64,000 nucleotides of DNA from Chiloscyllium plagiosum (GCF_004010195.1 NC_057733.1:13242586-13306585), one strand, 5' to 3'; positions 238-41,474 are shown, counted from the first letter of the stretch. Notes: generated from the sequence alone by a model not told the origin. Numbers and translations are program-made.

Positions 238-2124
238 ACACACACACCCGGAAAGAGAGTGAGAGCCTCCTCCCACCAACAACACTGGAACAACATCCTC
301 TGTGCAGAAAGGTTGCACTTCCTGCAGCATCACAGAGCATTTGACACAGTAAACATCTGAATGGAAACAGCGTTTGGTGTTAGAAAGTCAGGAGAAAAGA
401 TGCTCCTCAGAGAGTTGGGGCCAGACGATGGGCTGATTGGCCCCCTCCTTTATTTCTGTGATTCTGTTGGATGTGCCTGCACAAATTTGATTAAAAGGGA
501 ATATTTTGGGGAGGGAAACAGTCTTATCAGGCCAGTCAAGTACATTGTTAGAAGAGAAGTATTGAAATGTAATAATCACTTTCCGGATCACTTCATTTTA
601 CTGTTCACCTTATAGTTCCTAGTTAACCCACACAGAAGGGTGAAACTAAGAGTCATAGAATCAGCGAGATGTGCAGCACGGAAACAGACCGTTCAGTAAA
701 CATTTAACACTCCAAATTTAAGTTGCATTGAGTCTTCAAAATGATGAGACGGTCCAAAGAGTACGGAGGGAAAGACCGTTGTCACTGGCAAATGAATCAA
801 GTGCCCAGAGATCACCAGTTTAAGGTTATTGGCAAACTGACCAAAGACAAAAATTCCTGTATCTAGTGAGTGCTTAAGAGAATCTAGGATAAAGAGACAA
901 CATCGGAGAAACTATGTTGGTCTGGCTGTATTTGTGGTGAGAGAAACAAAGTTAACGTTCCAAGTCTGGTATGACTAGTTTCAAAGATCATATCAGATTC
1001 GAAATGTTAACTGTTCCTCTCTCGACAGATACTGCCAGACCTGCAGAGTTTCTCCAGTATTTTCTGTGTTTGTTCCAGATTCCACAATACTGTATTTCTC
1101 CTGTATTTGAGGATTTAGTTTACATTTCCTGAGAGTGTGGTGGAGGTATTTTTAAAGGAGCATTGGATTGTCAGAGGATTATGGGGAAGAGGTAGGACAG
1201 TTGCAGTCAGTGAATTGCCCCTTGCAGAGACAATATAGGTACAACAGGCATAATGTCTGTGAAACATTGCTACAACAGCAAAATGTAAGTCCCCAGTTGA
1301 CCTCACTTTGCTATTCACTGTATATACAAACTTATCAGTCTGACTGTATATGTTCAAATTCCAAAATGTTCATATTTCAAAAGGTGTGTTTATTTCAATC
1401 AATATTATTTCCACTCCTTCTCAGTTTTAGATCAGGTAAAGCTTCCATACAGCAAATATTTTTGAAGTTTCTTCTTCCTTCCCAAAAACAAAGAAAAATG
1501 AGAAACAAACTTAAAAGAGAAATAATCATCACAATCGGCCCAAAATGTAGAAACATTTTATAAAATAAGCCGGTTGTTGCTAATCCTGGGGTTGGTCTAG
1601 GGACATCAGGAAAACTCCACTGTTTTCTAAAGTGGGCAACATTATGTCACTGGAGGAGCAAATTACTGCAGATGCTGAAATCTGTGTTGAAAACAATAAA
1701 TGCTGGAGATCACAGCGGTTCAGGCAGTATTCCTGGAGAGAGAAGCTAATGTGAGAATGGTGTGTCTAACTACCAGACTGGAAAGAACAGTCCCCCTGGG
1801 GTAGGGGGAGGGGAGAGAGGACATGGTGACAGAGAATGTAATAAGTAAAGCAAAAACAAAGGGAAGAAATGGGAGTGGGTTCACAATCTGAAGGTGTTAA
1901 ACTCAACTTTAATGCCAGAAGTGAAACCAGGCGGACAGCAGCTAAAATGAACAAAACAGCAGATTAAGCACAAGGAAAAGTATTAAATGTTGAGATTTTG
2001 TGTGAAATGCTCCTGATTTAGCCCTAATCCAGACTGCCAATTGAGAATGAAGTGTTGATATAATTAGGCCTAGGACTATCGTAAAGACCTTGCACAAATT
2101 CAGCAGTTAACCCTGGAGCTGATT

Positions 2125-2460
2125 GTTTCCGGCCAGCATTTTCACAGGATCAGAAATGCTGACGTCACGGCGGACACACTTCCGGGTGTCAACAGGAGGC
2201 GAGGCTATAGGGGGAGGGACTCCGGAGCGGGCGGGGCTGGCAGGGACGCGGAGGTGGGGCTGGTCTGGCGGTGACGCGGAAAGGAGCGGGGCGGGGTTTG
2301 ATGGTGACGCGAAATGCGTGGCGGGCCAGGCGGAGACGCGACAGGAGGCGGGTGGGCAGGGCTAGAAGTGGGGCGGGGCTGGCGGTTATCGGTTGGCTCC
2401 GACCGTTGGGCCGAGGCGGGTAAGTGGAGCAGTTGGCGTCTTAGTGAGTGGACTCATCGG
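2125..2460 (+). promoter_or_regulatory. CpG-island promoter and non-coding first exon of ADPRM copy A, possibly shared with divergent SCO1
   Basis: GC/CpG-rich island in an AT-rich background. It contains a CRE TGACGTCA (2160-2167), an ETS/GABP-type CACTTCCGGG (~2177), many GGGCGG GC boxes and a strong donor CGG|GTAAGT with exon end at 2419. Confidence 0.7.
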
Positions 2461-3256
2461 GGAGAGAAATTCACAGACGGGGTTAATATTATGGGGTGTT
2501 TCGGGTGTAGTATTATGGAATTCTTCTCCTCATGGGGACTGAGCATGGTTACAGCATAGATGGGGGCCATTCGGCCCGTTGTCCCTGGGCTTGCCCTCTG
2601 AGTTAGCAAATGCCGTAATACCACGTTGTTTTTTCTGTAGCTGTGCATGTTGTTTTTTGGCTATAGTCCATTTCCTGCTCCTGCCTTCACCACACTCTTC
2701 ACTCCTTAACCAACTCATAAGTGAAAATATTTCCCTTTAATTGCTGCTTTTCCCAGTTACTCTAAAATCTGTAACCTTGAATTCTCAAATATTTTACAAG
2801 AGGGAGTTATTCCCCCCTACTTACTCTATCTGGCCCGTGATGATCTTCTATCAAATCTCCTTTTAGTTAGCACTTCTCTGGAAAATTTAATGATTAGATA
2901 ATGGCCATTGAGTCCTAACTGTTTCACTTGGGTGTATGTGCAACAACCACTGGGCCATTGCCAGTGTGATGGAGCAGGTTTGATAGTCTGACTTATCTGC
3001 TGCACCTCCTTTTTCTTGCGTTCTTGAAGCCTTTTGTAGGATAGGATAACTGAGCTTCGGCATGTTTTACGTGTGAGCTGAAATTTGGAGAGGTTGAAGG
3101 ATGGAAGGACAAAAATGTAATAATTGAATTTCAAAGTAAAAATAGTACAAGTGAAATGATTGAACTGTTCAACAAGTTTTGGTAACTCTGGTTTTGACCA
3201 AATGGGATTAGCTGTCTAGGAATATGGGAAAAGGAATAGGACCATTCAGCCTATTA

Positions 3257-5076: not shown

Positions 5077-5686
5077 ATGGAGACTGAAGCAGCAGAAGTC
5101 AACCTGTGTTTTACTTTTGGAGTCATAGCAGACATTCAGTATGCTGACACAGAGAATGGCTTCAATTATTCAAGGACAAGAGAACGTTACTATAGAAACA
5201 GCCTCCAGTTACTCCGCAGTGCTCTTCAAGAATGGAATGAAGAAGTGATCACTCCCAGGTTTATTCTGCAGCTTGGTGACATCATTGATGGATGCAATTC
5301 ACAGCTAAAGTCGTCAGATCATGCACTTCAAGTGGTCATAAATGAATTTGCAAAGTCTCTGTCTCCAGTTCACCATATCTGGGGAAATCATGAATTTTAT
5401 AATTTTAACAGGGAGCAGCTACTTAACTCATCTCTCAATAGCAAACACTTAGGAAATGGCAAACTCTTTGACAATGGAGACAGTAACATTAAATCAGACT
5501 TGGACCCTGATGATCCTGATGCCTTTTATGGCTACCATTTTAGTCCATTTCCTAAATTCCGCTTCATATTAACTGACACATACGATCTCAGTGTTCTGGG
5601 AAGGAAAAAGGATAGCAAGAAACATCGCTATTCGCTACAGAAACTGAAATCAAACAACAGAAATGAAAATCTTAATAGCCCCAAAG
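5077..5686 (+). CDS. ADPRM: ADPRM copy A, coding exon 1 (Mn-dependent ADP-ribose/CDP-alcohol diphosphatase, metallophosphoesterase fold)
   Basis: Acceptor ttgtttttaag at 5042, ATG at 5077. Motifs FGVIADIQYAD, RYYR, LQLGDIIDG, HHIWGNHEFYNF, FPKFRFIL, NENLNSP. Phase-1 donor AAG|GTAAAC. 610 nt. Confidence 0.95.
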
Positions 5687-6350: not shown

Positions 6351-6473
6351 GTCTCGATGGACTGAATTCACGCTTTCTGGCATTCAATGGAGGTTTCAGT
6401 CAAGAACAGATGGAATGGCTAAACAAGATACTCACTTTCTCTGATAATAACCAGGAAAAGGTTACAGTTATTG
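6351..6473 (+). CDS. ADPRM: ADPRM copy A, coding exon 2
   Basis: ttgacag| (G)[40 protein letters not shown] |gtaagt; 123 nt, phase 1-1; FNGGFS.EQ..WL motif typical of ADPRM. Not in the ORF track; translated by hand. Confidence 0.95.
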
Positions 6474-13009: not shown

Positions 13010-13308
13010 GTCATCTTCCTGTCCACCCATACTCGACAGATCCAATGTGCATTGCCTGGAACTATGATGAAATCCTCTCGGTGTTGCATGCACACACAAG
13101 TGTAGTGTGTTTTATCGCAGGCCATGATCACGATGGTGGTTACTACTTGGATGATCATGGAATTCACCATCTTACCTTGGAAGGTGTGATTGAAACACCA
13201 CCAGAAAGCCATGCATTTGGTACTATTCGTGTATATGAAGACAGAATGATTTTAAAGGGAAGGGGCAGGATTCCTGAAAGAGTTCTACACTTTGACAAAC
13301 ATAAATGA
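13010..13308 (+). CDS. ADPRM: ADPRM copy A, last coding exon (spliced CDS 1032 nt, 343 aa)
   Basis: catgcag| (G)HLPVHPYSTDPMCIAWNY...AGHDHDGGY...LEGVIETPPESHAFG...GRGRIPERVLHFDKHK*. Frame is continuous with the upstream exons (610+123+299=1032). Confidence 0.95.
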
Positions 13309-21500: not shown

Positions 21501-21537
21501 TCTTTGTTTCTGCATCCCCACAATAAAACTGCGAGTG

Positions 21538-21715
21538 GATTATAACATCTGCACTCCCTTTATAATGGATTCCTGCTGTCTGTCCCAGAGCCAAGAAACC
21601 ATGACAAGATTGTAACATCTGCACTCCCTCTGTAATGGATTCCTGCTCTCTGTCCCTACCCCCAATGAAGCTCTGACAAGATTGTAACATCTGCACTCTC
21701 TCAGTAATAGGTTCT
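21538..21715. repeat. Three diverged copies of a ~70-bp unit
   Basis: GATT(G/A)TAACATCTGCACTC(C/T)CT...TAAT(G/A)G recurs at ~21538, ~21608 and ~21680. Confidence 0.8.
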
Positions 21716-21719
21716 TGCT

Positions 21720-24010
21720 AAATAAAAGCAAATTACTGCAGATGCTGGAATCTGAAACCAAAATAGAAAATGCTGGAAAATCTCAGCAGGGTCTGGCAGC
21801 ATCTGTAAGGAGAGAAAAGAGCTGACGTTTTGAGTCTAACTGACCCTTTGTCAAAGCTAAAAAAAAGGGAGAAAAAGGGGCAGGTGTTGCTCGGCTGAGA
21901 GAATGGCTCCAGAAGCAAAGGTAGCAATATAGACTTGATAATGACAGTGCATAGAGAGATTAGGAGCTGTGAATGACCAAGGCTGAAGCCAGTGCTATAT
22001 GACAAAATATGTGGCAGATGGGGGGGATGGTGAAGCAGAGGCAAAACGGGAGAAGGGTAGCAAAGGGGGAAGAGGAGAGGAAAAAGGTGGTGAGAGAGTG
22101 GGGAGCGAGAAAAAGAGAGACAATCAAGAAATAAGAGGTACAGCACAGTGAAAAAAAAATTACGGAGCAGAATGAAAACAGAGGGGTCAAGATGGGATAA
22201 TCATCTGAAGTTGTTGAATTCAATGTTGAGACCGGCAGGCTGTAACGTGCCTAGTGGGAAAATGAGATGCTGTTCCTCCAGTTTGCGTTGAGCTTCACTG
22301 GAACATTGCAGCAGGCCAAGGACAGACATGTGGGCATGGGAGCAGAATTGTGTGTTGAAGTGGCAAGCCACAGGAAGGTCCGGGACCTGATTGCGTACAG
22401 GCGGAAGGTGCTCAGCAAAGCGATCACCCAGTCGGTGTTTTGTCCCTCTGATATAAAGGAGACCACATTGGGAGCAATAAATGCAATAGACCAAATTGAA
22501 AGATGTAGAAGTGAAACGCTGCTTAATTTGAAATGAGTGTTTGGGGCCTTGGATGGTGAGCATGGAAGAGGTAAAGGGGCAGGTGTTGCATGTTCTGCGA
22601 TTGCATGGGAAGGTGCCGTGTGTGATGGGAGAGGTGTTAGGTGTGATGGGAAGGTGCCGTGTGTGATGGGAGAGGTGTTAGGTGTGATGGGAAGGTGCCG
22701 TGTGTGATGGGAAAGGTGTTACGTGTGATGGGAAGGTGCATAGCTAGGACCCATGCGGGTACCCGTTGCTACACCTTTGATTTGGAGAAAATGGGATGAG
22801 TTGAAGGAGAAGTTGTTGAGAGAGAGAACAAGTTCAGCCAGGCGGAGGAGAGTGGTGGTGGATGGAGATTGTTCGGGCCTCTTTTCGAGAAAGAAGCGAA
22901 GAGCTTTCAAGCCATCTTGGTGTGGGATGGAGGTGTAAAGAGATTGCACATCCATGGTGAATAGGGGTGGTTAGGGCCTGTGAATTGAAAGCTGTCAATG
23001 TGTCGCGGGGCACCAGAGAAATCCTGGATGTAGATGGGGAGGGAGTGAACCAGAGGAGTAAGGATGGGATCAAGGTAGGAGGAAATAAGTTCAGTGGGGC
23101 AGGAGCATGCTGACACAATGGGCCTGCTGGGATAGTCCTTCTTGTGGATTTTGGGGAGTAGGTAGAAACGGGCTGTCCAGGGTTGGGAGACTATGAGGTT
23201 GGAAGCTGTAGGGGGGGAGGCATCCGGAGGAAATGAGGTCAGTCACGGTGTTGGAGACAATGGCTTGATGCTCAGTGGTGTGGTCATGCTCCAGGGGGAG
23301 GTAGGAGGAGGAATCTGAGAGTTGGCGCTCAGCCTCTGCGAGGTAGAGGTCAGTACGTCAGACAACAACAGCACCCCCTTTGTCAGCAGGTTTGATGACA
23401 AGGTTGGGGTTGGACCTAAGGGAGCAAAGAGCAGAAAGTTCGGATGGAGAGAGGTTGGAATGGGTAAGAGGGGCAGAGAAATTAAGGCGGCCAATGTCCT
23501 GTCGACAATTGTCAATGAAAAGTTCGAGGGAAGGAAATTGTCCTGGCGGGGATATCCAATTAGAGGTGGAATGTTGGAGGGATGTGAAAGGATCTGTGGA
23601 GCGGGGGGAGAACTCTTGCCCAAAGAAGTGAGCACGAAGGCGAAGGTGACGGCAGAAAAGCTCAGCATCATGTCGAACCCGGAATTCATTGAGGTGGGGA
23701 CGTAAGGGTACAAAGCTGAGTCCTTTGCTGAGAACAGCATGCTCAGCCTCAGAGAGGGGAAGGTCAGAGGGTATGGTGAACACACGGCAAGGGCTGGGGC
23801 TGGAAGAGATGGGGTTCGAGGGATTGGGACTGTTGGAAGGTGGACGGTGGGCAGGGGTGTGGATGAGAAGTTGAAGCTTGCGTTCCTTAACACCTGCAAG
23901 AAACAGGAAAAGTTTGGAGTTAAGGCGTCGAATGAAAAGACCGAGGGCTGGAAATTGTGGAGCAGGGGGAGGACTCTTGCCCAAAGAACTGAGCATGAAG
24001 GCGAAGGCGA
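21720..24010 (-). mobile_element. Penelope-like retroelement, internally deleted (N-terminus, RT N-half, GIY-YIG endonuclease, terminal repeat)
   Basis: [57 protein letters not shown]; GIY-YIG NLVYCIYCSQCGLLYI...RFAEH...LEEQHLIF.LGTLQPAGLNIEF (22201-22563). The YIDD-type catalytic motif region is absent and there are frameshifts. Confidence 0.92.
22605..22740. repeat. Minisatellite, ~40-bp unit of two related ~20-bp halves, ~3.3 copies
   Basis: GGGAAGGTGCCGTGTGTGATGGGAGAGGTGTTAGGTGTGAT repeated nearly perfectly. Confidence 0.9.
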
Positions 24011-25165
24011 CGGAAGAAGAGCTCAGAGTCATGTTGAAATACTGCAAATGCTCAAAATCTGAATAAAAAAACAAAGTGCTGGAGAAGCTTAAGGAGGTTT
24101 TGTAGCATCTGTAGAGAGAGAAACTAAGTTGATATTTCAAGTATGATATAACTATTCTTCAGAAATACATTTTATTTTTTGAACTTGCCGCTGTTAAATT
24201 CCAAAAGGCAGAGTTTGCTACCCAAACAAAAATTATAGCAAATGGTTTTGATTTAATTTGGTATACAACACAAGAGTAGAGATTCAGCATGCCATCCAGG
24301 GCATTGAGAATTAGCTACCTGTTATCTTAAAGGCCTGAATTTCAATCCCAATGTTTCACCAAGTCCACAGTTAGAGAATTAATACAAATGTCCGATGACA
24401 AGACAGAAATCTGACCTTGTGAGCTGCCTGGGTGAAGTTCCATATTCTCGTTAACCTTTATGTGAAAAGCACTCTCCACATTTCCTCCCCTGCCCCCATT
24501 CTCCTGTTGATAATCTTGAATCTGTGTCTCTTGTTTACCATTTTGTTATCCTCTGAAAAATGCATTTCATTACTGATAATCTCAAAAAAAAGTCTTCCAA
24601 TTTTTCATTTCTTTTTAATTGCTGTAAGTTTTTATGTGTTGATTATTTGTTGTGCCTGTGCCTCTTGAATTGTGTACCCAGGTTTATATGTAGTATTCTA
24701 ACAAGTATCAGATCAACCGGTCTTCTAGAAATTTATTTTATATTCAGTATCTTTAATACACAAAATCCAAATTCCTATTGACCTTTTGTGTAGTCTTTTC
24801 TACATGATGTCCAACTTTTAAAATCCCAGCTTCTTGCAATTTTATTTTACCAACTCTGTTTATACTATGCTTTCATTGTTTTCTTATCCAAAATAGACCA
24901 TTTTGTTTTGCGCATCGAACTGTATCTGTCCATTTTCCACGTCTTAAGATCAGAAACATTTAGCATTGTGTAATGTAAGAGCTGTGCATTTTGTTATACT
25001 GCCATCTCTGCTACTGTCCCTGTTGGCAAAATGTACATAAAATTGGCAACATAGCTACTTACAATTCTTTTTTGGTTTTATTTACACTTCTCCAACAGAG
25101 AGGGCAGTTGCGAAGGCAGTATAACAAAATGTTCAGCTCTTACAATATACAACATGCGCAATTTA

Positions 25166-25841: not shown

Positions 25842-26314
25842 TTGTACTTATCTTTAACATAAATGTAAAAGGAAATGGTATGGCATAATTACTTGTGCAA
25901 TGACAGAATCTACACCCTTCAAATCCTAGAGATATCGATTTATCTTGATCTTTGCTTTCTATTCTTCATGCTACTCATCATTTAATATATGACCACCTTC
26001 TCATTAATGCTTTGTGTCTTATAAGTGATCTATTCAACAGTCATAGGGCATAGACGTGAGAAAACCTCTTGGGAATGAATGAATTTTGTCACCTTCAGCA
26101 GCAGAAATGCAGAGGGAAGTGATTTGAGGTTGTGCTTCTGTGATCCAAGTATACAATTATCAATAGATCTTTATCAATATAACATTGTCTGGTGAAATGA
26201 GCAATAAAGAAACTTAATGATGCAATGAACTTTATTAGAGCTGGGCTATTTTTAAACCTATTTTTATTTTTTTCAGATAGTGGCAAGGTATGTGGACTTT
26301 AAGCTCATGAAAGA

Positions 26315-26909
26315 ATGGCAACTGACGCAGATGAGCCAAAAAAACTGAATTTTACTTTCGGTGTCATAGCAGACATTCAATACGCCAATACAGACAATGG
26401 TTATAATGGCACACGCACAATGAGACGTTATTACAGGAACAGCCTCCATTTACTGTGCAGTGCTGTCAGGGGATGGAATGAAGAAGTGAACACTCCCAGC
26501 TTTATTCTGCAGCTTGGAGACATCATTGATGGATGCAATTTGCAGCTAAAGTCCTCAGATCATGCACTTCAAGTGGTCTTAGATGAATTTTCAAAGTGTT
26601 CATCTCCTGTGCACCATATCTTGGGTAACCATGAATTGTATAATTTTGATAGGGAACTATTACTTAAATCAGCTCTCAATAGCACGTGCCTGGGAAACAA
26701 AGATAACAGCATTGAGACCTGGTCCAAACCTAATGACTCAGAGGCATTTTATGGCTACCATTTTAGTCCTTTCCCTAAGTTTCGATTCATAATCACCGAC
26801 TCATACGACCTTAGCATTTTGGGGAGGAAATATTCCAGCAAGAAACATCGTGATTCGATGGAAATATTGACGTCATACAACAAAAATGAAGATTTTAATA
26901 GCTCAAAAG
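26315..26909 (+). CDS. ADPRM: ADPRM copy B (tandem paralog), coding exon 1
   Basis: Acceptor tttttcag at 26276, ATG at 26315. Motifs FGVIADIQYAN, RRYYR, LQLGDIIDG, HHILGNHELYNF, FPKFRFII, NEDFNSSK. Phase-1 donor AAG|GTAATT. 595 nt. Confidence 0.95.
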
Positions 26910-26974
26910 GTAATTTAAGGTTACATCTATATGCACTGTTATCGGGTGACCATAAAGTTTTATTCAATTAACTG

Positions 26975-27225
26975 ATAGAGTCTAGAGATGTACAGCACGG
27001 AAACAGACCCTTTGGTCCAACCTGTCCATGCCAACCAGATACCCAACCCAATCCAGTCCCATCTGCCAGCACCCAGTCCATATCCCTCCAAACCCTTTCT
27101 ATTCATATACCCATCCAGATGCCTTTTAAATGCTGTAATTGTACCGGCCTACACCACTTCCTCTGGCAGCTCATTCCATAGACGTACCACCCTCTGCGTG
27201 AAAAAGTTGCCCTTTTGGTCTCTTT
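26975..27225 (-). mobile_element. CR1/HER1 3' terminal fragment
   Basis: AGAGATGTACAGCACGGAAACAGACCC...TCCACCACC/GAAAAAGTTGCC antisense 3' end shared with other CR1 copies in the window. Confidence 0.8.
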
Positions 27226-27467
27226 TACCCAAGTTTTATATTACACAGATGATGACAAGGGATGTGAAATTTAAAATGCTGAGAGAGACAACTGAAATAG
27301 ATGAGGGTAAAACACATTGAATGTTACTTGCTGATTTGAGTTGGGGCAGGATGTATTGTCAATTAAACCAAGCTTGTTTCACCTTCATCCTTATTGATTT
27401 CAATTCATGGGCAATGTACTTAATCTATTTATCTTGCTTATATGTAGACTTTATACTTCTTTATATT

Positions 27468-27650
27468 TGGAGGCAGTGAGGTTTGCAGATGCTAGAGATC
27501 AGAGTTGAGACTATGTTGCTGGAAAAGCACAGCACGTCAGGCAGCATCCAAGGAGCAGGAGATTCGACGTTTTGGGCTGGAAACGTCGATTTTCCTGCTT
27601 CTTGGATGCTGCCTGACCTGCTGTGCTTTTCCAGCAACACACTCTCAACT
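27468..27650. mobile_element. Palindromic Penelope-terminus-derived insertion
   Basis: Same inverted arms as 3257-3716. Confidence 0.7.
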
Positions 27651-28069
27651 TATTTATATTTATCTGCCCATGTCCTACCTTAGTTCATGTATCGGACACA
27701 ATTTTATTGCAAACTTCAAGGGTCCTAACATCGGGCCTAATTAAAGGTATCAGACTGTTGCATGGATAGTCCCAGAGGAAGCTGCCTAACCAGTCTGTTC
27801 TGAACTCACTGAACTAATAAAGGCAGAGTGGGATGTATGTGGATCTCAGTTTGGCCCATCAGAATGCTGGCATGCCTAAAGCCTCTGTTAGAAAAGGTGG
27901 ATCCTACTGACACAGGTCTGAGAGCGTGGAGGAGCCCTCAGAGGGATCAATATAATTTAAAGCAGTGTATCTCCTTCCAACTCACTTGAACAGGACACCG
28001 GTGTCACTGGCATCGTCATTGTGCACCCTCATTATACTGGACCTGGGCATAGTGCTCACTTGTTACTAC

Positions 28070-28230
28070 TTCTCCCTTACTGTTCTGCTGGTCACTCCCC
28101 TGTTGCTGCCTCTCCCTTCCTGTTCTGATGGTCACTCCCTTGTTCCTGCCTCTCCCTTACTGTTCTGCTGGTCTCTCCTATGTTGCTGCCTCTCCCTTCC
28201 TGTTCTGCTGGTCACAGCCCTTGTTGTTGC
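28070..28230. repeat. Minisatellite, ~39-bp unit, ~4 copies
   Basis: CTGCCTCTCCCTT(C/A)CTGTTCTG(C/A)TGGTCACTCCC..TGTT(G/C) repeated. Confidence 0.85.
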
Positions 28231-28602
28231 CTTGTTTGCTATTGTCCTCACCACTGCCTACCATCCTCCAATGCTCACCATTTTCCTCATCCATCATCAG
28301 TGGCCACCTTTAACCCCCTCCGCCCCTCCTCAGCTTCCCTCTCCTCACTATCCCACTGGCCGCATCCTTCACTGCCCAGCTCAAGGACCAAGACAGTGAG
28401 TGAGGGCCCAAAGGGCTTTTGCTGATCACTCCCTCAGTCTTTGTGTTTGCCTTTTTACCCAGAAGTGCTATCACACGCAAGTCAGCGACTTTCCCACCAC
28501 CAAATAGCCATGATGTTTTTTGTTAAATCACTCCTCTCGTTCAACAGTTCTCTAACTCATTTCAGGGGCACCAGGCTGCTATGCGAAATAAGCCTTAAGT
28601 AT

Positions 28603-28930
28603 GGAGTCACGGTGGCACAGTGGTTAGCACTGCTGCCTCACAGCGCCAGAGACCCGGGATCAATTCCCGCCTCAGGCGACTGACTGTGTGAAGTTTGCAC
28701 ATTCTCCCCGTGTCTGCGTGGGTTTCCTCCGGGTGCTCTGGTTTCCTCCCACAGTCCAAAGATGTGCAGGTCAGGTGAATTGGACATGCTAAATTGCCCG
28801 TAGTGTTAGGTGAAGGGGAAAAAGTAGGGGTATGGGTATGTTACGCTTCGGTGGGTCGGTGTGGACTTGTTGGGCCAAAGGGCCTGTTTCCACACTGTAA
28901 GTAATCTAATCTGTAAGTAATCTAATCTAA
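28603..28930 (+). mobile_element. HE1-type SINE, relatively young
   Basis: CACGGTGGCACAGTGGTTAGCACTGCTGCCTCACAGCGCCAGAGACCCGGG; CpGs retained; tail (TGTAAGTAATCTAATC)x2. Confidence 0.88.
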
Positions 28931-30474
28931 ACAGGTCCTGCAACTTTCCTGGCAGTGATACTGCAGTTGCACGGCTGGTGACGGTGTCTCCCACAGTTGC
29001 ATTGCAACAAATACCATTTGTTTAAATTAGTTGCCTGTCTTAGCTCAGTGTGCAGCCGAGCTGCACCTGGTCCTACTGTTGGTAGACTTTCTAAGTAGTG
29101 AGACGGCATGGAGCATCATCTTCAATTAGCTCCTGGCTATTTTTTTTGTCTCAGGCACTTCCCTCGCAGCAGTTGTGATTGATTTAATACAATCTGAAAA
29201 TTAATCACTTCACACTGAATTTCTGAATCCAGTTAATTTGAATTGCTTTTGGTCCCAACAGTATCCCCATTCAATATTTCACACTGCTACGATCCCTCCA
29301 GTTCTGATATAAGTGCTTTAGTGCCCAATACCTTTGCTGCATGCACCTCAGCCAGTTTCATCGTTATTCCTATGATTTTCCAATCTCCTTGTTTAGCTTT
29401 TAGTTTAATTCATTGATTATTCCCCTGTGTGATTTGAAATTCAAGCATAGCACATAATATGTCTTCATTATGTGGATTGTTAATTTTTCAGGAATATCAT
29501 GGAGGTTGGTCAGGTAGTATTTTCTTTTAAATCAATGCAGACTGTTGTTAATTAAGTTATTGGTACAGGGCAGTGTACCCAATAATCTAGCCACGTGGAG
29601 CCAGTTGCTTTTAGTAAATCAGAAATGAATAACAGCACCATTTTGGACACACAGTGCAAGTGTACATTAACCTTTTTGTGCCTTTTTATGCAAATGAAAT
29701 TTTGTCAATTCATTATAAGGGGATTCAAGTAATAGTAAAGAAGTATTGCAATAACAACTGTACAGGGAATTTTTGACACCATTCTAGAATACTCTTTAAT
29801 TTTGCTTTCCATATTTAAGAAAGCCTGCATTGGAGACAGTACAGTGAAAATTCACTAGATTGGGTAATCTTCTCATCCCAGGGACCAATGACAAGAGGCT
29901 GAGTAAATTGTGTCTGTATTCACTGAAGTTTGGAAGAATGTCATGATAACACTGAAACATTTCAAGACTATGAAAAGACTTGATAAGGTAGATACTGAGT
30001 TGCTGTTTCTCCTGGCTAGGCATTTAGGGTAAGAGGGCACAACTTCAGGATAAGAGGCTGAGATAAAGAAAAATATATCTCCATTTAAAAGGTTGTGGAT
30101 CTCAGGAATTCTGTATCCAGAGGGCTACGGATGTATATAATCATTAAATTAATTTAAATTTGGAATAGGTAAATTTACTCTTGCTTCTACTTATGTTTGT
30201 TGGTGTGGTGATAATGCAAAAGACAGTACATGGTTATCACATTGGAGGCTATATTTCAGCTCTTCTGTCTTTGCTCCACTGAGAATGAGTACAGAAGGAT
30301 GGAATTTTATTTTCAAAACCTCAAACCATGACGTTGAAAGTATGGAATAACGACAAACTCCTGCAAAATCTCCATGAAATAGCAATGGCTATTGTAGCTT
30401 TATTGTCTGTCTCTAACTGGCCTTGAACTGAGTAGCTTGCTAAGTTGTTTCAGAAGGCAGTTGACAGTCAATCA

Positions 30475-31335
30475 CGTAGAATCATAGCGTTGTACAGCTT
30501 AGAAACAGACTCTTTGGTCCAACTCACCCATGCTGACCAGATAACCCAAATTAATTTAGTCCAATTACCTTCTAGACTCTTCCCATTCATTTGTACCAGT
30601 ATCCATCACTTACTCTGGCAGCTCATTCCATACATGCAATACTCTCTGCATCAAAATGTTGCCCCTTAGGTCCCTTTTATCTCTTTCTCCCATCACTTTA
30701 AACCTATGGCCTCTAGTTCTGCACTCCCCTATTCTGGGAAAAAGACTTTGGCTTTTTACTCTATCCATGTCCTCGTGATTTTATAAACCTCTATAAGGTT
30801 ACCCCTCAGCCTCCAATGATCTGGGGAAAACAGCCCCAAACCTATTCGGCCTCTCCTTATAGCTCAAACCCTCCAACCCTGGCAACATCCTTGTAAATCT
30901 TTTGTGCACCTAACAGGAAGACCAGAATTGAATGCAATGGTCTAACCAGTGTCTTGAACAGTCGCAACACTCAATGCACTGACCAATAAACACAAATGTA
31001 TCAAACGCCTTCTTTACTACCCTGTCTACCTGTGACTCCACCTTCAAGCGACTATGAACCTGCACCCCAAGGTCTCTTTTTTTGGCAACACTCCCCAGGA
31101 CCTACCATTAAGTGTATAAGTCCTGCCCTGATTTGCCTTTACAAAAGGCAATACCTCACATTTTTCTAAATTAAACTCCATCTGCCACTCCTCGGCCTAT
31201 TGGCTTATCTGATCAAGGTCCTTATGTACTCTAGGATAACCTTCACTGTCCACTACACCACCAATTTCAGTGTCATCTGCAAACTTACTAACCATTCCTC
31301 CTACACACCCATTCAAATCATTTATGTAAATGACA
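30475..31335 (-). mobile_element. CR1/HER1 LINE 3' fragment
   Basis: Antisense CR1 blocks CCCCTCAGCCTCC, CCTGGCAACATCCTTGTAAAT and GTCATCTGCAAACTTACTAA. Confidence 0.8.
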
Positions 31336-31757
31336 GCTGTGGGTCTGGAGTCACATGTAAGCCAGACCAGGTGAGGTTGGCAGATTTCCTTCCCTGAAGG
31401 ACATTAGTGAATCAGATACATGTTTCCAACAGTCAGCAATAGCTTCATGTTTATCTTTAGATTCTTAATTCCAAATGTTTTTTAAAAATTGAACTCAATT
31501 CCATCATCTGCCTGGGTCTTTGAACCTGGATCCTCAGAACATTTGCTGAGTTTCTGGGTGAATAGTACAGCAAAAATATCATTAAGCCATTGCCTCCACA
31601 AATTAATTTGAATTAGGGAATTAGTTTGTGTGGGGAAGAACCAAATACTAAAAAAGAGTACGTCTCCCAGTGGCGTTTCAAAAATGTGATGAGTTTTCAT
31701 ATGTTCAAAATCATTACAAATTTAAAACTGAAAAGTTCTAAAATATTTCATCAACAG

Positions 31758-31880
31758 GGCTCCATGGGCTGGAAAAACGTTTTGTGGCGTTTAATGGAGG
31801 TTTCAGTAAGGAACAGCTGGATTGGCTGAACAAAATATTAACTTTCTCAGATCGTAACCAGGAGAAGGTTACAATTGCTG
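31758..31880 (+). CDS. ADPRM: ADPRM copy B, coding exon 2
   Basis: caacag| (G)[40 protein letters not shown] |gtaggt; 123 nt, same length and phase as copy A. Confidence 0.95.
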
Positions 31881-33377
31881 GTAGGTGCTGGTTATATAAA
31901 ATCACAACGTATTCAATTCAGAGTATATAGCTACACAATGGTATCAATGGGATAAAATTATAGACTTAGCAAGATTTTGTCAGTAAACATTAAACACATT
32001 CTTTAGAAATGAGGTTCTAATCTTATTACAAACAACAAAAAGAAAAAAATTCTCCTATTTCTTTAGAGCTTTGTGATTTCTTTAACAATGGAAATCATCA
32101 TAAATTTGCTAACTTTAATTTTCCTCTCAATGCAACTTGCTCTTTAACATTTTAACAAATGATGTATGATATGCAATACTGCACCTAAAACTCAAATTTT
32201 CTTTTCCATCACTGGTTTTAATTTTCTGGTGTTAACAAATAGAACTCAAGCAATATTGTTCATTATTCTGGCCTGCACTGTGATCCTTAAAAGAGGAAGG
32301 CTTAAAACTGCGAGATCACCTAAAATCCCAAAATTTGTTTTTCTGTAATTTATTCATGGTGTATGGGCATTGCTGGCAAGATAAACATTTATTGCCCATC
32401 CTGTTTACCCTTGAAAAGGTTGTAGTGAGTTGATTTCTTGAACTGCTGCAGTTGATTTAGTGTGGGTTGACCACCAGTGTTGTTAGAGAGTGAGTTACCT
32501 CCTGGTGACACTGAAGGAATGACGGTATATTTCCAAGTTCTGGATGATAAACGGTTTGGAGTCCAACTTGCAGGCAGTGGGGTTCCCAGGGATCTACTGT
32601 CTTGTCTTCTCGGATGGTATGGTCGTGAGTTTGGAAGGTGCTAAGGAGAGTCAGTAATATCTTAAGTGCATTTTGTAGATGGAGGAACCTTAGTGGTGGT
32701 GGTATTCCCGTGCACTTGCTGCCCTAATCTTTCTAGTTGGTAGAAGTCACAAGTTCAGCTTTTTGACTTAAGCTGTAACCTTCAACCTACCTAGAAACCC
32801 CAGTTTCCACCTCTTTGAACAAGGACCGCAGTCTTATTATTTGTTTCTAAGATGGGAGAACAAAATCAAAACAATTCCCGGCTCCACAGGCATAACTCAT
32901 GAGAAAGTGGCTGGGAATGTGAGGTTTTCATTTCAGCGAGGTAGGAGTTCCTTGGGAGTTAAGGCTTGGTGAACCTGGAAGGTGAGCAGAGGGTGCTGTG
33001 TGCAGAAGTGTGCTGAATGGGAGGCGTATCTCCATACATGGGCACTGTTACCTAGCCATGCACCAGAATCACATAGGGGTGGAGATAGCTGCTGATTCAT
33101 ATAGATATGAAATGTGACCCACCTTCATTCCTACAGCCACAGAAATGATGTCCGTCAGAATTGGTAACTAGCTTCTTGTAGCGTTGTACATTCTAATCAA
33201 ATTTTGCTCTTTGTGAATTGTTGTGAAACATCAATTAAAATTTCTATTTCTATTGTCACTATTTGTCAAGGTAACCATAACCTATAAAGTAAAAGCCAAA
33301 GAATTGCAGATGCTGGAAATCTGAAACAAAAACAGAAATTTGAGTTATGAAGAAGGGTCACTGGACTGGAATATTAA

Positions 33378-33735
33378 TCATAGAATCCCTACAGTGCAGA
33401 AGCAGGACATTGGGCCCATCAAGTCTACACTAACTCTCCAAACAGCATCCCATCTGGATCAATTCCCCCACCCTATCCCTGTAACCAATCATTTCCTATG
33501 GCTAACCCACTGAGCCTGCACATTCCTGGATACTATGGGCAATTTAGCAGGGCCATTCAACCTAACCAGCACATCTTTGGCCCCGTGGGAAGAAACTGGA
33601 GTACCTGGTGGAAACACACACAGACACAGGGAGAATGTGCAAACTCCACACAGATAGTTGCCTGAGGCTGGAATTAAACATGGGCCCCTGGCACTGTGAG
33701 GCAGCAGTGCTAACCACTGAGCCACTGTGCTGCCC
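33378..33735 (-). mobile_element. HE1-type SINE
   Basis: Antisense of the A/B-box head and central domain (GCAGCAGTGCTAACCACTGAGCCACTGTGCTGCCC). Confidence 0.85.
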
Positions 33736-34369
33736 TAACTCTGCTTTCTGACCATGGTTGATGTCAGTCCTGCTGAATTTTTCCAGCAATTTCTGTTTTT
33801 GTAACAATAGGCTATCTTTGACTATGGCTGTAATACAGCAATAGCCTCTTTTGCCATTCACCTGTGTTAAACAATAAAGTGAGACTGTACACCCTGATAT
33901 GCCTCCAAATTCCCCACACCTGCCTTTGTCCCTTAATATATTTAAATACGAAAAATGTCTCAATCACAGATTTAAAATTTAGAATCAATTTAATATTAGC
34001 TGCTGTTTGCAGAACAGAGTTCTACTGAGTGTATTCCTACCTCACTCCTACAGGGTCTTGCTTTGACTTCAGACCATATCCCTTTGTCCTAGATTGTCCA
34101 ATAAGAAAGCTCCTGTTTCTCTACCTGCTTCTTTTCATAGCTTGAGAATGTTAAGCAAAACACCCCTCAACTTTCTAATGTCTAGACAGAACAACCCTAG
34201 TTTGTATAACCTCTTCTCCAAAATTAACCCTTGCAGGCTAGTTATCATTCTTATAAATCCATGCTGTATTCCCTCCAATGTCAATATACTTCAGCTCATT
34301 AAGGATATTCTCATGATGCTCCAGGTACGGTCTTATCAGTATAGCTAAGATGGATCTTTCAGAATGAAT

Positions 34370-34642
34370 AGATTAGATTCCCTACAGTGTGGAAACAGGC
34401 CCTTCGCCCCAACAAGTCCATATCAACCCTCTGAAGAGTGACGCACTTTCCCCTCTGACTAATGCACCTAACACCATGGGTAATTTAACATGGCCTGCAC
34501 ATCTTTGGACTGTGGGAGGAAACCCACGCAGACACAGACAGAATGTGCAAACTCCACACAGACAGTCACCTGAGGCTGGGATCGAATCTGGGACCCTGAT
34601 GCTGTGAGGCAGCAGTGCTAACCACTGAGCCACTATGCCACC
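34370..34642 (-). mobile_element. HE1-type SINE
   Basis: Antisense of the head (GCAGCAGTGCTAACCACTGAGCCAC) and the TAGATTAGATTCCC tail. Confidence 0.85.
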
Positions 34643-35002
34643 CCCTTTATTTCAGTTCACTGGAGATAAAGGCCAGCAGAAGTCCATTAGTGTTTTTTTT
34701 GTAAGTGATTGTCAAATACGGCCCCATTTACTTTATATCAAATCCTTAGAAACAGTTAGATACCCTTAGAAATAAGTTACAGATTATAGGGCTCAGCTGT
34801 CAAACAGTGAAGTTCCCAAATGGCACAAACATTTCCTGAAGTTATTCCCTGATCAAATCAGCAATATGATTTATGTCAGCTTTCATGTGTGATATCTGAA
34901 GACCCTGCTGTCTGATCCGGTATTGTCAGGTCAACTGGATTTGACTGCTGTCAATTTCGTACTTCAGAGCAGACAAATAAAACTGTTGTATTTTTATTGC
35001 AG

Positions 35003-35298
35003 CTCATGTTCCAATCCATCCACAGTCTACAAATTCACATGGGATTGCATGGAACTACGATGAGATCCTGTCGGTGTTGCATGCACACACGAGTGTTGTG
35101 TGTTTTCTGGCTGGACATGATCACAATGGAGCTTATTGCTTGGATTGCCATGGAATTCACCATCTTACACTCGAAGGTGTGATTGAAACACCACCAGAGA
35201 GCCATGCATTTGGAACTATCTATGTATATGATGACAGAATGATTGTCAAGGGAAGAGGCAGGATTCAGGACAGGATTCTTCACTACAAGAAAATCTGA
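35003..35298 (+). CDS. ADPRM: ADPRM copy B, last coding exon (spliced CDS 1014 nt, 337 aa)
   Basis: ttattgcag| (A)HVPIHPQSTNSHGIAWNY...AGHDHNGAY...LEGVIETPPESHAFG...GRGRIQDRILHYKKI*. 595+123+296=1014 with no frameshift or premature stop. Confidence 0.95.
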
Positions 35299-37595: not shown

Positions 37596-38302
37596 ATATA
37601 ACAATGTCAACAAAGTTTATTTTGGCTGGAAGAGCTGTTTCCTCATTAGAAATATCCTACAGTAAAGTTTACAACTGTTGACTTCAATCAAAATACAGTA
37701 TCTAATTCACAATAACATTATGTTACAGAAGGACATACCCTCCACTCTGGATATACAAAAATACACTTTTCCAAAACAAAGTTGAGTAAATCCATCAGGC
37801 ACAGCAAACCTGTTGCTTTCTGTTAGATCTATAGCATCTGCTGTAAAGGATGAGCTTGTTAGACCCTGCAATTATGAAATGATCCTAAACATTGTTGTAC
37901 ATTTATTGCAGATAGAAATTTTGAGATCTAAGACTTATTGCTGCCCATGATATCAAACATAATAGTGTTTAGCTCAAACTACCAAGGCAGTGAAAACAAC
38001 ATTGCAAAAATGTTTCAACATAGACAAAATGCTGAAGACCTGTAGTGTGGTTTTGATTTGAAACCTTCTGATTCACAGAGGTCATATTGACACATACATT
38101 ATAAAATTAACATAATTTAGTATTAATTAAAAGTTAAATTAAGTACAAAATAGAGAAAAGTAATTTTCTTTCGCATATCTAAATCAGCTGGACTGGTAGC
38201 CTTGAAGAACAAATAAAAACCATTTCTTCAGTTTTAGGTTCAATCCATTTCAAACTTGTTCAAAGCTCTTTGCTTGGTCCGATTGTTGGTTTAATCTCCT
38301 GT

Positions 38303-38432
38303 TTAAATGGTGTTCCTGCAGTGATCTGGCCAGGATGCTCGTAGCTCTTTATTGATGTAGTAATATAGCCATGTTATGAATGGCAGGACTGTAATGAGAA
38401 CTGCAATGGAAAGTCTGAAGCCGCCGAGATGT
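38303..38432 (-). CDS. TMEM220: TMEM220 last coding exon (spliced CDS 525 nt, 174 aa)
   Basis: gtgcag|(K)HLGGFRLSIAVLITVLPFITWLYYYINKELRASWPDHCRNTI*; C-terminal INKE.R.SWP.HC motif; exon lengths sum to 525. Confidence 0.93.
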
Positions 38433-41005
38433 CTGCACAATAGAACAGAATCTTATTCATTTCATCTCTATCTGAGATTACACAAAGGAATAATACTCTA
38501 AGTAATACATTTGTTGGCTGAAACCTGTGATTCAGTGATTTCTTTTTAACTAGATCACTGGGAGCTGGAATCTACACCATGACTCAGCATAAATATTCTA
38601 GGTTCTCATCAGTATGAGCCATTATGATCATGCAAATATTGTTGAGTGTTGTTTTAACTCAACCTCTTCACATACACTTCTGATGCAGTGAGACCTGAAC
38701 CCAGATTTCCTGACTCAGAGGAACATTACCACTCCACCAAGATAATCTACAAATTGCTGGCTTTATTTTTATTCATTCATGGGATGTTGGCATCACGGCC
38801 TGGAATATTGTTTGAATTTTTCTTAAATTCCTCTGGAGCAGTTAGGATTTGAATTATGATCTTCTGCCTCAGAGGTCAGCACACTACCACCACACCACAA
38901 GAACCCTCAACTTGTTGACTGCATTAACTGAAGTTGAGTACATTCGGCAAAGGACGTTTATTTTGATGGTTACTTGAGCCCACATAAAGAGACGCCACCA
39001 GCACAGGATCAAGTGAAGTCAGGCGATATGTAGCTGTCAGCTTTTAATTAGACAAATTCACGTAGTGAAACGTGTGTTTGGTTTCTTTAATCACCGACTG
39101 ATTTTCAGGATCAAGAAACATTCATCCTATAGATTTTCACGTGTTCAAGTTAATGGGGAAGCACTTTGCCTTTTAAAGTATTCCTTTCTGCATTACTATT
39201 GTACTTTAACATATTAGAGATTAACATTCACAGTGACCTTCAAAACCTTTAAAATGTGGGTCAACGTCTACGTTGAGTATCAACTCATCCAGTGTGGGTA
39301 ATTACCATTTTGAAATGCTTCCAATGTAAAGATTGGGCATGAGTTTGGATTTTTCTTAAATTAACTGGTTCGGAGATGTCACAACACATTTTTGGAGCAG
39401 ATGGGATTTGACCATTGACCTCCTGCCTCAGACTGTATGAAATGAGTTTAAGTCCATACAGATGAAGGCATTTATTCAATGATTACTTCACCTTATATAA
39501 AGGAACAGTTACCAGCACAGGCTGAGATACAGTGCAGTCAGGAGACACATACCTTTAATGTTTCACTCTGTGAATAACTCTATTCAAAGACTGTGTTTAA
39601 TCACCAACTGGTTAGTCTTGTGCATCTGAACAACACAGTCTGTATCACTGGCTTGATCACTTAGGCCCAGCTATAAAGCTACTGGTAAATAAACATATAT
39701 TGAGGGGGATAAAAATTGAAGATGACTATTCAGACAAGAATGGCATGTTGTGACTGAAAAGATTGGGCAAATTAGAATTATTCATTTAGTATGTGCAAAA
39801 AACTGGAAGAAGGGATAGACTTATACACCAAGATTTATGGGTACATTCATCAAGAATGCACATGGAAATGAGATGGGCTGCAGGCTGACTGCAGAAAGCA
39901 CAGGGAGAGAGGGTTCTCCAACCAAACACAGAAACCAAATGATTTGACAATTCTTCCACAGATACAGTTTTGTAATCAGTAATCACAAAATGATAAATAT
40001 TGTGTCATATATCTTTAAGTTATCCTGAAACTGGAATCACTCATTAACAGATATCACAGCCTTCCAAGTTACAGGGCTGAGCTATTTGTCTATTTTGTGA
40101 TTTGAAAGTAGCAAGACAATCATCAAACAGAGGAGCTACAATAAATATCTCATATAAACAAGGATTCACATTTAAAAGAAATATAGAATGAAATAAACGC
40201 AAGTTCAATATTTTAAAAAGTCAATAGAGGCAACTGACTTTCTTGAGCGCAATATGTGTCATTATTCTCAAAAATTAAAATTCACAATTATACAACATCC
40301 CATGGCCATAAGAACCACATATATAAAGCATCACACATTTAAGTGCAGCCAGCTTGTTGTATTGGTAAACCCAATACTCAATTTGCACACAACAAGAATT
40401 GGAAAAAAGTTATGGGTGCATTTGCTTCATTAGAGGGTGCCAGATTTTGCTGCTTATCCGGTTGTATTCCGTACAAAATCACAATGAAGCTGAATGATGG
40501 AATAAGTGAAATTTAACTCATATTTCCATAAATGCAGGAGAGGTAGTTGCATTTTTGAAGGACTAGTGGATACCCACTGGGTAGTCTGTGGTTTGAAACA
40601 TCTGCAATGTTTAGCATCTAGTCTGGCCCTTTAAGATCAACATGACTTTTTGTATAACAAACAGCAGTACTGGAGGCAGAACACAATATTATTATCCTAT
40701 GAAACTGTCCTTCAAATAAGACCAATGAATCTGAATGAAGATTCGTTGATGAGGTGACAATATCTTAGGGTCCAATTGCTCTGAAGGATGAAAGCTTCCA
40801 GATTCATAGTTAGCTGCTTCCTCTATCTGTGGCAATGCTATATTAGAAAGCATAAGCTCGTGGTCAGCCAGTCTGAAACAAAAAACTCCTAATTTTGGAG
40901 ATTTTGGACAGAATATCATTGGAATGAATACATTTGATAAAATCTAGAGTATGAATTATTCAATCTGTCAGACGGCTTGTTTGAAAGATATTGAGCTGTA
41001 CTCAC

Positions 41006-41065
41006 TTCCCCGAATGTCGACACAAAAGAGTCCAAATAACGATAATAACTAATCCCAGAAACTCC
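41006..41065 (-). CDS. TMEM220: TMEM220 coding exon 5
   Basis: cacag|(R)EFLGLVIIVIWTLLCRHSG(K)|gtgagt; 60 nt. Confidence 0.92.
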
Positions 41066-41474
41066 CTGTGAGACAACCACAGTAACAAAATTAGTACGAA
41101 ACAACTTTGTGACTTAAAGGTAGCAAAACAATTATTGAATAAATTTTATAATGAGATCTCATGTAATAAGGAACTTATAACCTCGTAAACTGAGAAAAGT
41201 TGCAGAAGTCCAATGTAAAAAAGGACAGCATTCACACATACTGAACTTCTTCTCAAAGTTAACTCACACCAGCATTTAGAGAAAAATAACTTGCAATTCA
41301 ACATCATCTCATGTCCTTGGGTCAGTGCTAAGCACTTTACTGCTTATTAAAGTGCAGCTACTTGTTTTACAGGGGAACCCAACTGGGACATGGCACAGTC
41401 CCACAAATAGTAGACTAACCAGACAGACCTCATTCAAACACATCATCTGAAAAATGACATCTCTGACAATACAG

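Follow-up and report, generated by a model that had tools for sequence, protein, structure and literature searches.

The window, the whole 64,000-nt stretch of Chiloscyllium plagiosum DNA analysed here, contains two intact ADPRM genes in tandem, copies A and B. Copy A comprises a first (5077..5686), a middle (6351..6473) and a last coding exon (13010..13308), all on the + strand, whose splicing yields a 343-residue protein that is canonical in carrying Tyr37, Leu196 and Asp-Pro-Met-Cys253. Copy B, also on the + strand and likewise built of three coding exons, joins 26315..26909, 31758..31880 (123 nt) and 35003..35298 through GT–AG introns in phases 1/1 to give a 337-residue protein with no internal stop. 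The two spliced proteins show no residue difference from RefSeq XP_043570387 (P0124) and XP_043570383 (P0134). The first coding exon of copy B follows an acceptor AG at 26275-76, the exon starting at 26277, and carries Asp20, Gln22, Gly32 (human Phe37), Arg38, Asp69, Asn105, His106, Phe194 (human Leu196) and Ser197 (human Pro199); the middle exon carries Phe210, Ala239 and the first base of the Ala240 codon; the last carries His241, Val242, Asn250-Ser251-His252-Gly253, His278-Asp279-His280 and the TGA stop. RefSeq holds at least four accessions for the identical copy-B protein in this species, and several accessions for one protein are the usual sign of multiple transcript models.

Additional ADPRM copies in the C. 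plagiosum genome were sought and rejected: seven candidates were obtained with the last exon, two of which were matches. Copy B as a recent or decaying duplicate was likewise rejected, given an A-versus-B dS of 0.69, a dN/dS of 0.25 and nine intact orthologues. Support from synteny amounts to one weak single-exon match, and a whole-genome search for the TMEM220 family gave no match.

A CpG-rich, putatively promoter-like stretch lies 5′ of copy A (2001..2500, + strand), with TGACGTCA at 2160, ACTTCCGG at 2178 and GC boxes at 2288 and 2370. No CpG island or comparable stretch was found 5′ of copy B, where there are just three weakly CpG-enriched bins (22551-23850). Similarity to the copy-A promoter was sought upstream of copy B with no convincing hit (best E 0.21), and a search for an upstream copy-B exon with the horn-shark N-terminal extension gave no convincing match (best score 16).

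Active-site residues of copy B

Residues are numbered after human ADPRM (Q3LIE5; P0255) by global alignment, in which copy B is identical to the human protein at 174 of 331 aligned residues. A sequence-only reading of this DNA had proposed that copy B is intact and retains the metal and catalytic residues, and the full set does align to Q3LIE5 (Asp25, Gln27, Arg43, Asp74, Asn110, His111, Phe210, His241, His278 and His280 at human-alignment positions). The ADPRibase-Mn-like family of the MDP superfamily is defined by the motif DX[H/X]...GDXX[D/X]...GNH[D/E]...[G/X]H...GHX[H/X], with D[V/I]Q in region I, and by the family-unique regions s2s3, h2 and h7h8, with Arg43 invariant and Phe210 conserved. 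Copy B presents all five parts (DIQ, GDIID, GNHE, AH and GHDH), matches PF00149 (E 2.3e-10) and, in the family-unique regions, is separated from the human protein by a sole gap, a 2-residue insertion common to copy A. In common with vertebrate ADPRM/ADPRibase-Mn (EC 3.6.1.53; human Q3LIE5, rat, zebrafish 2NXF), copy B has every one of the metallophosphoesterase motifs, D[V/I]Q, Arg43, His111 and Phe210; it differs from these enzymes by a non-aromatic residue 37, Gly253, Asn250-Ser251 followed by a polar residue 252, Ala239/Ala240/Val242 and Ser199, and by being a second tandem gene beside a canonical one.

Copy-B Gly32 (GGC, 26408..26410), Phe194 (TTT, 26894..26896) and Asn250-Ser251-His252-Gly253 (35032..35043; CAT for His at 35038-40, GGG for Gly at 35041-43), all on the + strand, align to human Phe37, Leu196 and Asp250-Asn251-Val252-Cys253, which confirms the codons and the equivalences to Phe37, Leu196 and Cys253 that had been put forward. 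The accompanying statement that three pocket positions separate copies A and B was mistaken, as far more differ.

An AlphaFold model of copy B (pLDDT 92.5) places a short helix at 251-253. Foldseek ranked 2NXF first for this model (E 2.7e-47, TM 0.89/0.95; next match E 9.7e-14), and 2NXF was the sole match in a PDB sequence search with copy B; the predicted fold is of the 2NXF type.

Copy-B orthologues in sharks

Nine shark copy-B orthologues carry G/F/G (three), D/F/G (four, white and basking shark among them), D/V/G (one, horn shark) or D/L/G (one, sawshark) at positions 37/196/253. A lack of conservation of G/F/G had been named beforehand as refuting the proposal and, taken literally, applies: the exact set did not extend beyond three of the nine, all Hemiscylliidae, the other six having Asp37; a non-aromatic residue 37 with Gly253 is constant in 9/9. 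Also constant are Asn250, Ser251, Ala239/Ala240/Val242, Ser199 and a polar residue 252 (Gln in five, His in two, Asn and Glu in one each), as are all catalytic residues, Arg38 and Phe210 among them. Residue 196, Phe in seven orthologues, is Val or Leu in the two basal ones, and Asp37 is present in both basal lineages. Gly37 is a late replacement of an ancestral Asp, and Phe196 was acquired after the duplication and is not basal in B.

Phe or Tyr at 37 is widely conserved in animals and plants (PMC4334965). Both Phe/Tyr37 and Cys253 are found in copy A and in all shark A (13/13), batoid and chimaera (10/10), teleost (36/36) and mammalian (16/16) proteins tallied, and the copy-B orthologues have neither. 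Gly253 occurs in 9/9 B proteins but in none of the 205 remaining full-length family proteins of a redundant, mainly vertebrate set (Cys in 194, a gap in five, Ser and Thr in two each, Ala and Asn in one each). In a diverse set of 148 aligned representatives, 22 of which lacked anchor residues and were excluded, one of the 126 scorable proteins combines a non-aromatic 37 with Gly, Ala or Ser at 253; the three with Gly253 all have an aromatic 37. Asp279 is shared by 9/9 copy-B proteins and 35/36 teleosts, the mammalian residue being Thr. Copy B resembles mammals (16/16 each) in lacking Pro251 and having Ile244, which weakly favours a reading in terms of cyclic ADP-ribose (cADPR).

No copy B turned up for catsharks, Mustelus, Heptranchias, batoids or chimaera, and certain lineages can apparently do without it. 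When shorter proteins were searched for, 46 matches were obtained, none with a shark label; the best identity was 75%, and the top match was not B-like. Orthology of copy B to a divergent amphibian paralogue was rejected, as the two formed separate clades in a quick tree.

Phylogeny and constraint

The copy-B clade, spanning sawshark to bamboo shark, is recovered with 100/100 support on a stem of 0.16. Copy B is a shark-lineage ADPRM duplicate; it postdates the divergence of chimaera and was present by the time sawsharks and galeomorphs separated. Its date relative to rays is only loosely constrained: a tree made to hold shark A and B together was not rejected (p-AU 0.22), and none of the trees resolves the backbone. 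After the duplication, 25 changes fell on the B side versus eight on the A side (p=0.005). Fourteen of the 25 B-stem changes lie in the pocket regions defined in the literature (88 of 314 sites; p=0.002, or p=0.003 on variable sites alone), and four of the 11 residues mutated in published work were altered on the B stem (p=0.007), as counted under a strict tie rule that leaves positions 196 and 209 off the stem. Within the nine species, B proteins differ from one another by a p-distance of 0.153 on average and A proteins by 0.139, copy B being slightly faster in 28 of 36 non-independent pairs. Copy B, which appears to have respecialised early, shows afterwards a constraint close to that of copy A.

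Comparison with measured enzymes

The human mutagenesis of Phe37, Leu196 and Cys253 cited in the earlier proposal agrees with the papers. In the human enzyme, F37A raises the Km for ADP-ribose 19-fold and costs 50-fold on this substrate, whereas C253A, the only gain-of-efficiency mutation, raises cADPR efficiency 11-fold (PMC5773619, PMC4334965), a gain absent from the bulkier C253V. V252A enhances cADPR activity and D250A is the worst loss for it (PMC5773619, PMC4334965); the measured effect of L196F is minor (PMC4334965). The triple mutant F37A+L196F+C253G reaches a cADPR/ADP-ribose ratio of 15, with cADPR up 12-fold and NAD+, NADH and FAD down 18-, 30- and 120-fold (PMC5773619, PMC4334965).

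The window's copy B matches this enzyme and F37A+L196F+V252A+C253G (PMC5773619, PMC4334965) at 37 (small, non-aromatic), 196 (Phe) and 253 (Gly), and the traits at 37 and 253 extend to all nine orthologues. It differs from them in His252, ancestrally Gln (theirs being Val or Ala), in Asn250 and Asp279 in place of Asp250 and Thr279, in a background sharing about 53% of its residues with human, and in the Asp37 of most orthologues; the engineered enzymes were measured kinetically, and copy B is known from sequence. In line with the caveat raised earlier over a bulky residue 252, the Gln, His, Asn and Glu found there are larger than Val and run contrary to the V252A gain.

Zebrafish ADPRM has Tyr37, Cys253 and Asp279, the same residue types at 37 and 253 as in mammals, yet its kcat/Km on cADPR is 28 versus about 4000 M-1 s-1 for mammalian enzymes. 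Enzyme background can therefore shift cADPR activity 150-fold. When we applied the fold changes of the human triple mutant to the zebrafish values, cADPR came to 336, fifth of six substrates, with CDP-glycerol first at 4800 and ADP-ribose at 1889.

Discussion

Our data make it likely that the preference of copy B has moved away from ADP-ribose, and equally likely that it has a new, selected specificity. The earlier proposal of a natural cADPR phosphohydrolase stands in part: the determinants of largest effect, a non-aromatic 37 and a small 253, persist in 9/9 orthologues, but residues 250, 252 and 279 do not follow the engineered design. Together with the 150-fold effect of background in zebrafish, these departures make a cADPR enzyme a good lead and not a result. 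We tentatively favour cADPR as the best substrate of copy B. It is conceivable, if somewhat doubtful, that sharks evolved a dedicated cADPR phosphohydrolase by ADPRM duplication near the origin of the living shark groups, through the same two key changes as were engineered later.

If copy B works as mutagenesis suggests for the human enzyme, two Mn2+ ions would activate a bridging water for attack on the pyrophosphate, with Arg43 stabilising, His111 orienting and Phe210 bracing. Loss of the aromatic ring at 37 would abolish the contact with adenine to which linear ADP-ribose owes its low Km, and Gly253, the reshaped 250-252 turn and the changes at Ala239/Ala240/Val242, which adjoin the metal ligand His241, could open space beneath the second ('northern') ribose. 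The likeliest beneficiary would be cADPR, cleaved to N1-(5-phosphoribosyl)-AMP (pRib-AMP), with copy A presumably remaining an ADP-ribose/CDP-alcohol enzyme. The bamboo shark genome contains two ADP-ribosyl-cyclase-family genes (PF02267), which makes a source of cADPR plausible. Since the same pocket residues would change with any new substrate, the case for cADPR in particular lies solely in the direction of change, which is mixed: in our analysis, the large polar 252, Asn250, the fish-type Asp279, the ancestral Asp37 and the non-basal, minor-effect Phe196 would all argue against it.

Copy B might instead be specialised for another ADP-ribose relative, one whose second ribose bears bulk or charge; we regard this as unlikely but credible. 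Gly253 would give room, and the fixed polar Asn250-Ser251-Gln252 and Asp37 could bring new hydrogen bonds or charge; indeed, the fixed changes add polar groups and do not merely remove bulk. Candidates would include O-acetyl-ADP-ribose, ADP-ribose-1''-phosphate or 1'',2''-cyclic phosphate, a 2'/3'-cADPR isomer and an NAD/NMN-type cation. Each is a deduced possibility; of such compounds, the published panels cover NAD+, NADH, NADP+, NAADP and FAD, and the human triple mutant, which gains cADPR, loses NAD+, NADH and FAD.

A role as a diphosphatase of CDP-alcohols (CDP-choline, -ethanolamine or -glycerol), in which loss of the ring at 37 ends the ADP-ribose preference and Asp37 may bind a cationic head group, seems improbable. 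It would agree with CDP-choline being the best substrate of the human single mutant F37A (PMC4334965), with the first rank of CDP-glycerol in the zebrafish background and with Asp37 in six of nine B proteins, both basal lineages included. The hemiscylliids, however, have lost Asp37, and replacing C253A by C253G in the triple mutant lowers CDP-choline efficiency about 6-fold (22000 to 3870; PMC5773619, PMC4334965), so that the strict conservation of Gly253 would go unexplained.

We give as little credence to copy B being an ADPRibase-Mn of broader or lower activity with an unchanged substrate ranking, retained for dosage or tissue-specific expression, its pocket changes having become fixed during early relaxation. 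Relaxation also predicts an early burst after duplication, and the absence of copy B from the proteins found for several shark lineages and of a CpG-island promoter like that of copy A fits this account; against it, the changed sites are near-invariant elsewhere (Cys253, Phe/Tyr37, Pro199), cluster in the pocket and were then frozen in 9/9, and F37A is costly to the human enzyme on ADP-ribose. That copy B has poor catalysis or is silent, serving to bind a ligand or to regulate copy A, or going untranscribed in this species, is very hard to credit: although its first exon and promoter were searched for and not located, its catalytic residues are invariant, its frame is unbroken, its splice sites are preserved, its constraint equals that of A, and RefSeq lists it repeatedly.

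Turnover of cADPR is attributed to CD38/BST1 (PF02267), a family unrelated to copy B whose role in cADPR removal would be the one proposed here; CD38/BST1 release ADP-ribose by cleaving the N1-glycosidic bond, and pRib-AMP is what pyrophosphate cleavage by ADPRM-type enzymes yields. The phosphohydrolytic route is so far known only as a minor side activity and an engineered tool (PMC5773619), and a passage in one review describes a cADPR phosphohydrolase used to lower cADPR in injured axons. Our literature search, with subscription journals mostly outside it, found no natural dedicated cADPR phosphohydrolase and nothing on a shark ADPRM paralogue. Plant ADPRibase-Mn-like proteins with a natural Ala253, whose possible superiority as cADPR enzymes was termed speculative in PMC4334965, share a small residue 253 with copy B, which adds a non-aromatic 37. 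The authors of that study called for natural family members without Phe37 or Cys253, and shark copy B is one. It comes with a built-in control, the canonical sister gene A, and with a graded series (D/L/G, D/V/G, D/F/G and G/F/G) over nine species.

Should the cADPR reading be true, copy B would be the first naturally occurring enzyme dedicated to terminating cADPR signals via pyrophosphate cleavage, pRib-AMP would be a real vertebrate metabolite, and evolution and engineering would have converged, with a second off-switch for this messenger in nature. Should copy B prefer another nucleotide, this would point to a so far unnoticed substrate in a family of uncertain physiological role.

Two ADPRM genes in tandem

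The plus strand of the window carries two complete tandem ADPRM genes, copy A (coding exons 5077–5686, 6351–6473 and 13010–13308; 343 residues) and copy B (26315–26909, 31758–31880 and 35003–35298; 337 residues), with GT–AG introns in phases 1/1 and no internal stops. The encoded proteins match Chiloscyllium plagiosum XP_043570383 and XP_043570387, respectively, at every residue, and a genome search with the last exon recovered these two copies only. Copy B is already entered in databases as 'ADPRM-like', the identical protein appears under at least four RefSeq accessions, an indirect sign of transcription, and we found no paper on it in the open-access literature searched. The two proteins share 244 of 336 aligned residues (Nei–Gojobori dS 0.69, dN 0.17, dN/dS 0.25), and alignable homology between the genes is limited to the three coding exons, which is consistent with an old duplication. 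The introns and the spacer (21000–24200, 47300–48400, 54700–55200 and elsewhere) hold ORF remnants and repeat fragments, presumably of LINE and Penelope type.

We searched for the promoter and first exon of copy B and did not find them. Short out-of-frame ORFs lie just 5' of the start codons of copy B (26290–26310 and 26307–26348, one overlapping its ATG) and copy A (5043–5063), suggesting possible translational damping; in horn shark copy B and several copy A proteins the annotation instead reads this stretch in frame, as an extension of the N terminus. Minus-strand pieces resembling exons of TMEM220, which we expect downstream of ADPRM, occur near 57700, 48770, 48600, 41055 and 38380 (about 38300–57750), one giving a weak PF15071 match below the cut-off (E 0.0055). 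The expected neighbor SCO1 was not confirmed, since the sequence directly upstream of the window (locus L003:3500–10000) is mostly N (6,476 of 10,000 bases). An ORF-like stretch at 5–379 had no Pfam match.

Pocket residues and orthologs of copy B

Alignment to human ADPRM (Q3LIE5) places copy B Gly32, Phe194, Asn250, Ser251, His252 and Gly253 at human Phe37, Leu196, Asp250, Asn251, Val252 and Cys253. This upholds the 37/196/253 equivalences of the sequence-only reading, with codons at 26408–26410, 26894–26896 and 35041–35043. Asp25, Gln27, Arg43, Asp74, Asn110, His111, Phe210, His241, His278 and His280 are all retained, and an AlphaFold model (76-sequence alignment; mean pLDDT 92.5) has zebrafish 2NXF as its top PDB match (E 2.7e-47).

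Homolog searches and cluster look-ups yielded nine copy B proteins, from two Chiloscyllium species, Hemiscyllium, Stegostoma, Rhincodon, Carcharodon, Cetorhinus, Heterodontus and the sawshark Pristiophorus. They form a single clade (support 100/100; stem 0.16–0.18 changes per site) nested within elasmobranchs and separate from Callorhinchus. The duplication thus took place no later than the galeomorph/squalomorph split, which occurred roughly 250 million years or more ago; as to its order relative to rays, a tree keeping shark copies A and B together was not rejected (p-AU 0.22). Copy B is missing among database proteins of Scyliorhinus, Mustelus, Heptranchias, the listed batoids and chimaera, a database absence that does not prove loss.

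Gly253, Asp32, Ser199, Ala239, Ala240, Val242, Ile244, Asn250 and Ser251 (human numbering) are each present in 9/9 copy B proteins, and residue 252 is always polar (Gln in five, His in two, Asn and Glu in one each). Seven proteins have Phe at position 196, where Heterodontus has Val and Pristiophorus Leu; position 37 is Asp in six and Gly in three, all Hemiscylliidae. Conservation of Gly37/Phe196/Gly253 as a set was thus not borne out. This exact combination arose late, in a single family, from an older Asp/Leu/Gly. Beside the last metal motif (codons 281–283; 35125–35133), Asp281 is replaced by Asn or Ser in the five carpet-shark copy B proteins and Gly283 by Ala in the three hemiscylliid ones, both residues being near-invariant elsewhere; these lineages later gained Gly37, so pocket change continued there.

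Candidate substrates

The mutagenesis cited in the sequence-only reading agrees with PMC4334965 and PMC5773619. In the former, human F37A increases the ADP-ribose Km 19-fold, so that CDP-choline becomes the preferred substrate; F37Y resembles wild type, C253A increases cADPR efficiency 11-fold and L196F has a minor effect. The same paper calls for natural proteins without Phe37 or Cys253. In the latter, F37A+L196F+C253G reaches 46,500 M-1 s-1 for cADPR versus 3,100 for ADP-ribose, V252A doubles cADPR activity, V252G brings no gain, and D250A is the mutation most damaging to that activity. Zebrafish ADPRM (Tyr37, Cys253, Asp279) cleaves cADPR at 28 M-1 s-1, 150-fold below rat (PMC3407115). Asp37 is absent from the mutants tested in these papers.

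Copy B joins intact chemistry residues to a rebuilt pocket. Two metals and a bridging water would attack the pyrophosphate by an unchanged mechanism, linear ADP-ribose would be demoted once residue 37 no longer contacts the adenine, and Gly253 would open space at the second ribose. Copy B would work like the engineered triple mutant F37A+L196F+C253G, but it does not match the quadruple mutant. Because the same 37/253 pair favors cADPR and lowers all other tested substrates in the human enzyme, conversion of cADPR to pRib-AMP is our best single answer, though somewhat less likely than not; a dedicated cADPR phosphohydrolase is slightly less probable still. The altered copy B is confirmed as an observation, and its interpretation as a cADPR enzyme is partly supported. 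Against cADPR, the direction of the differences is mixed: position 252 holds a bulky polar residue, position 250 has Asn, and position 279 carries the Asp typical of fish. Human fold changes applied to zebrafish values rank cADPR fifth of six substrates, but this ignores the other fixed changes of copy B, two of which (no Pro251, Ile244) parallel mammals. Which positions changed says little by itself, because adaptation to any other substrate would also alter the pocket. A different relative of ADP-ribose, one whose second ribose is decorated, is a less probable substrate than cADPR. CDP-alcohols are unlikely, and so, to the same degree, is an unchanged substrate ranking.

Cyclase genes and other ADPRM lineages

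The genome holds two tandem ADP-ribosyl-cyclase (CD38/BST1) family genes about 40 kb apart (loci L007–L010 on contig G000:C1, about 115.10 and 115.14 Mb). An exon at L008 reads PLGDSL and one at L009 PLESTL; the Gly of the former would putatively stand at CD38 Glu146. Mutation of Glu146 makes CD38 cyclase-like (PMC2785692), so one of these shark genes may be a stronger cADPR maker.

A divergent amphibian ADPRM form (collected proteins P0075/P0269, P0084, P0068, P0082, P0083, P0092, P0095, P0223 and P0272) falls apart from shark copy B in a quick tree. It has lost the aromatic residue at 37, although Trp occupies the next position, and its 190–205 loop is shortened or altered. It often carries Lys or Arg at 249–251, keeps Cys253 and mostly shares Val242 with shark copy B. 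Specificity may therefore have shifted independently a second time here, perhaps toward a more phosphorylated substrate. Residue 196 is Leu in 16/16 mammals, 36/36 teleosts and 13/13 shark copy A proteins tallied; batoid ADPRM (P0142, P0137, P0226–P0234, P0241–P0254) has Pro, Thr or Ser.

Probable selection on copy B

We counted stem changes strictly, where both basal copy B proteins agree and differ from the shark copy A majority, with outgroups polarizing. There were 25 changes on the copy B side versus 8 on the copy A side (p=0.005), with five unassigned. Fourteen of the 25 fall within the pocket as delimited by the published work, which covers 88 of 314 sites (p=0.002, or p=0.003 for variable sites only), and four of the 11 mutagenized residues changed (37, 250, 252 and 253; p=0.007). 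Gly253 occurs in none of the 205 other full-length proteins collected. Among 126 scorable diverse representatives it occurs in 3, each of which keeps an aromatic residue at 37.

After the stem, copy B is about as constrained as copy A: its mean p-distance is 0.153, compared with 0.139, and 220 of 336 columns are invariant, compared with 230. An inactive or silent copy B is very improbable. At the protein level, such a burst in the pocket followed by long stasis fits the emergence of a new specificity under selection.
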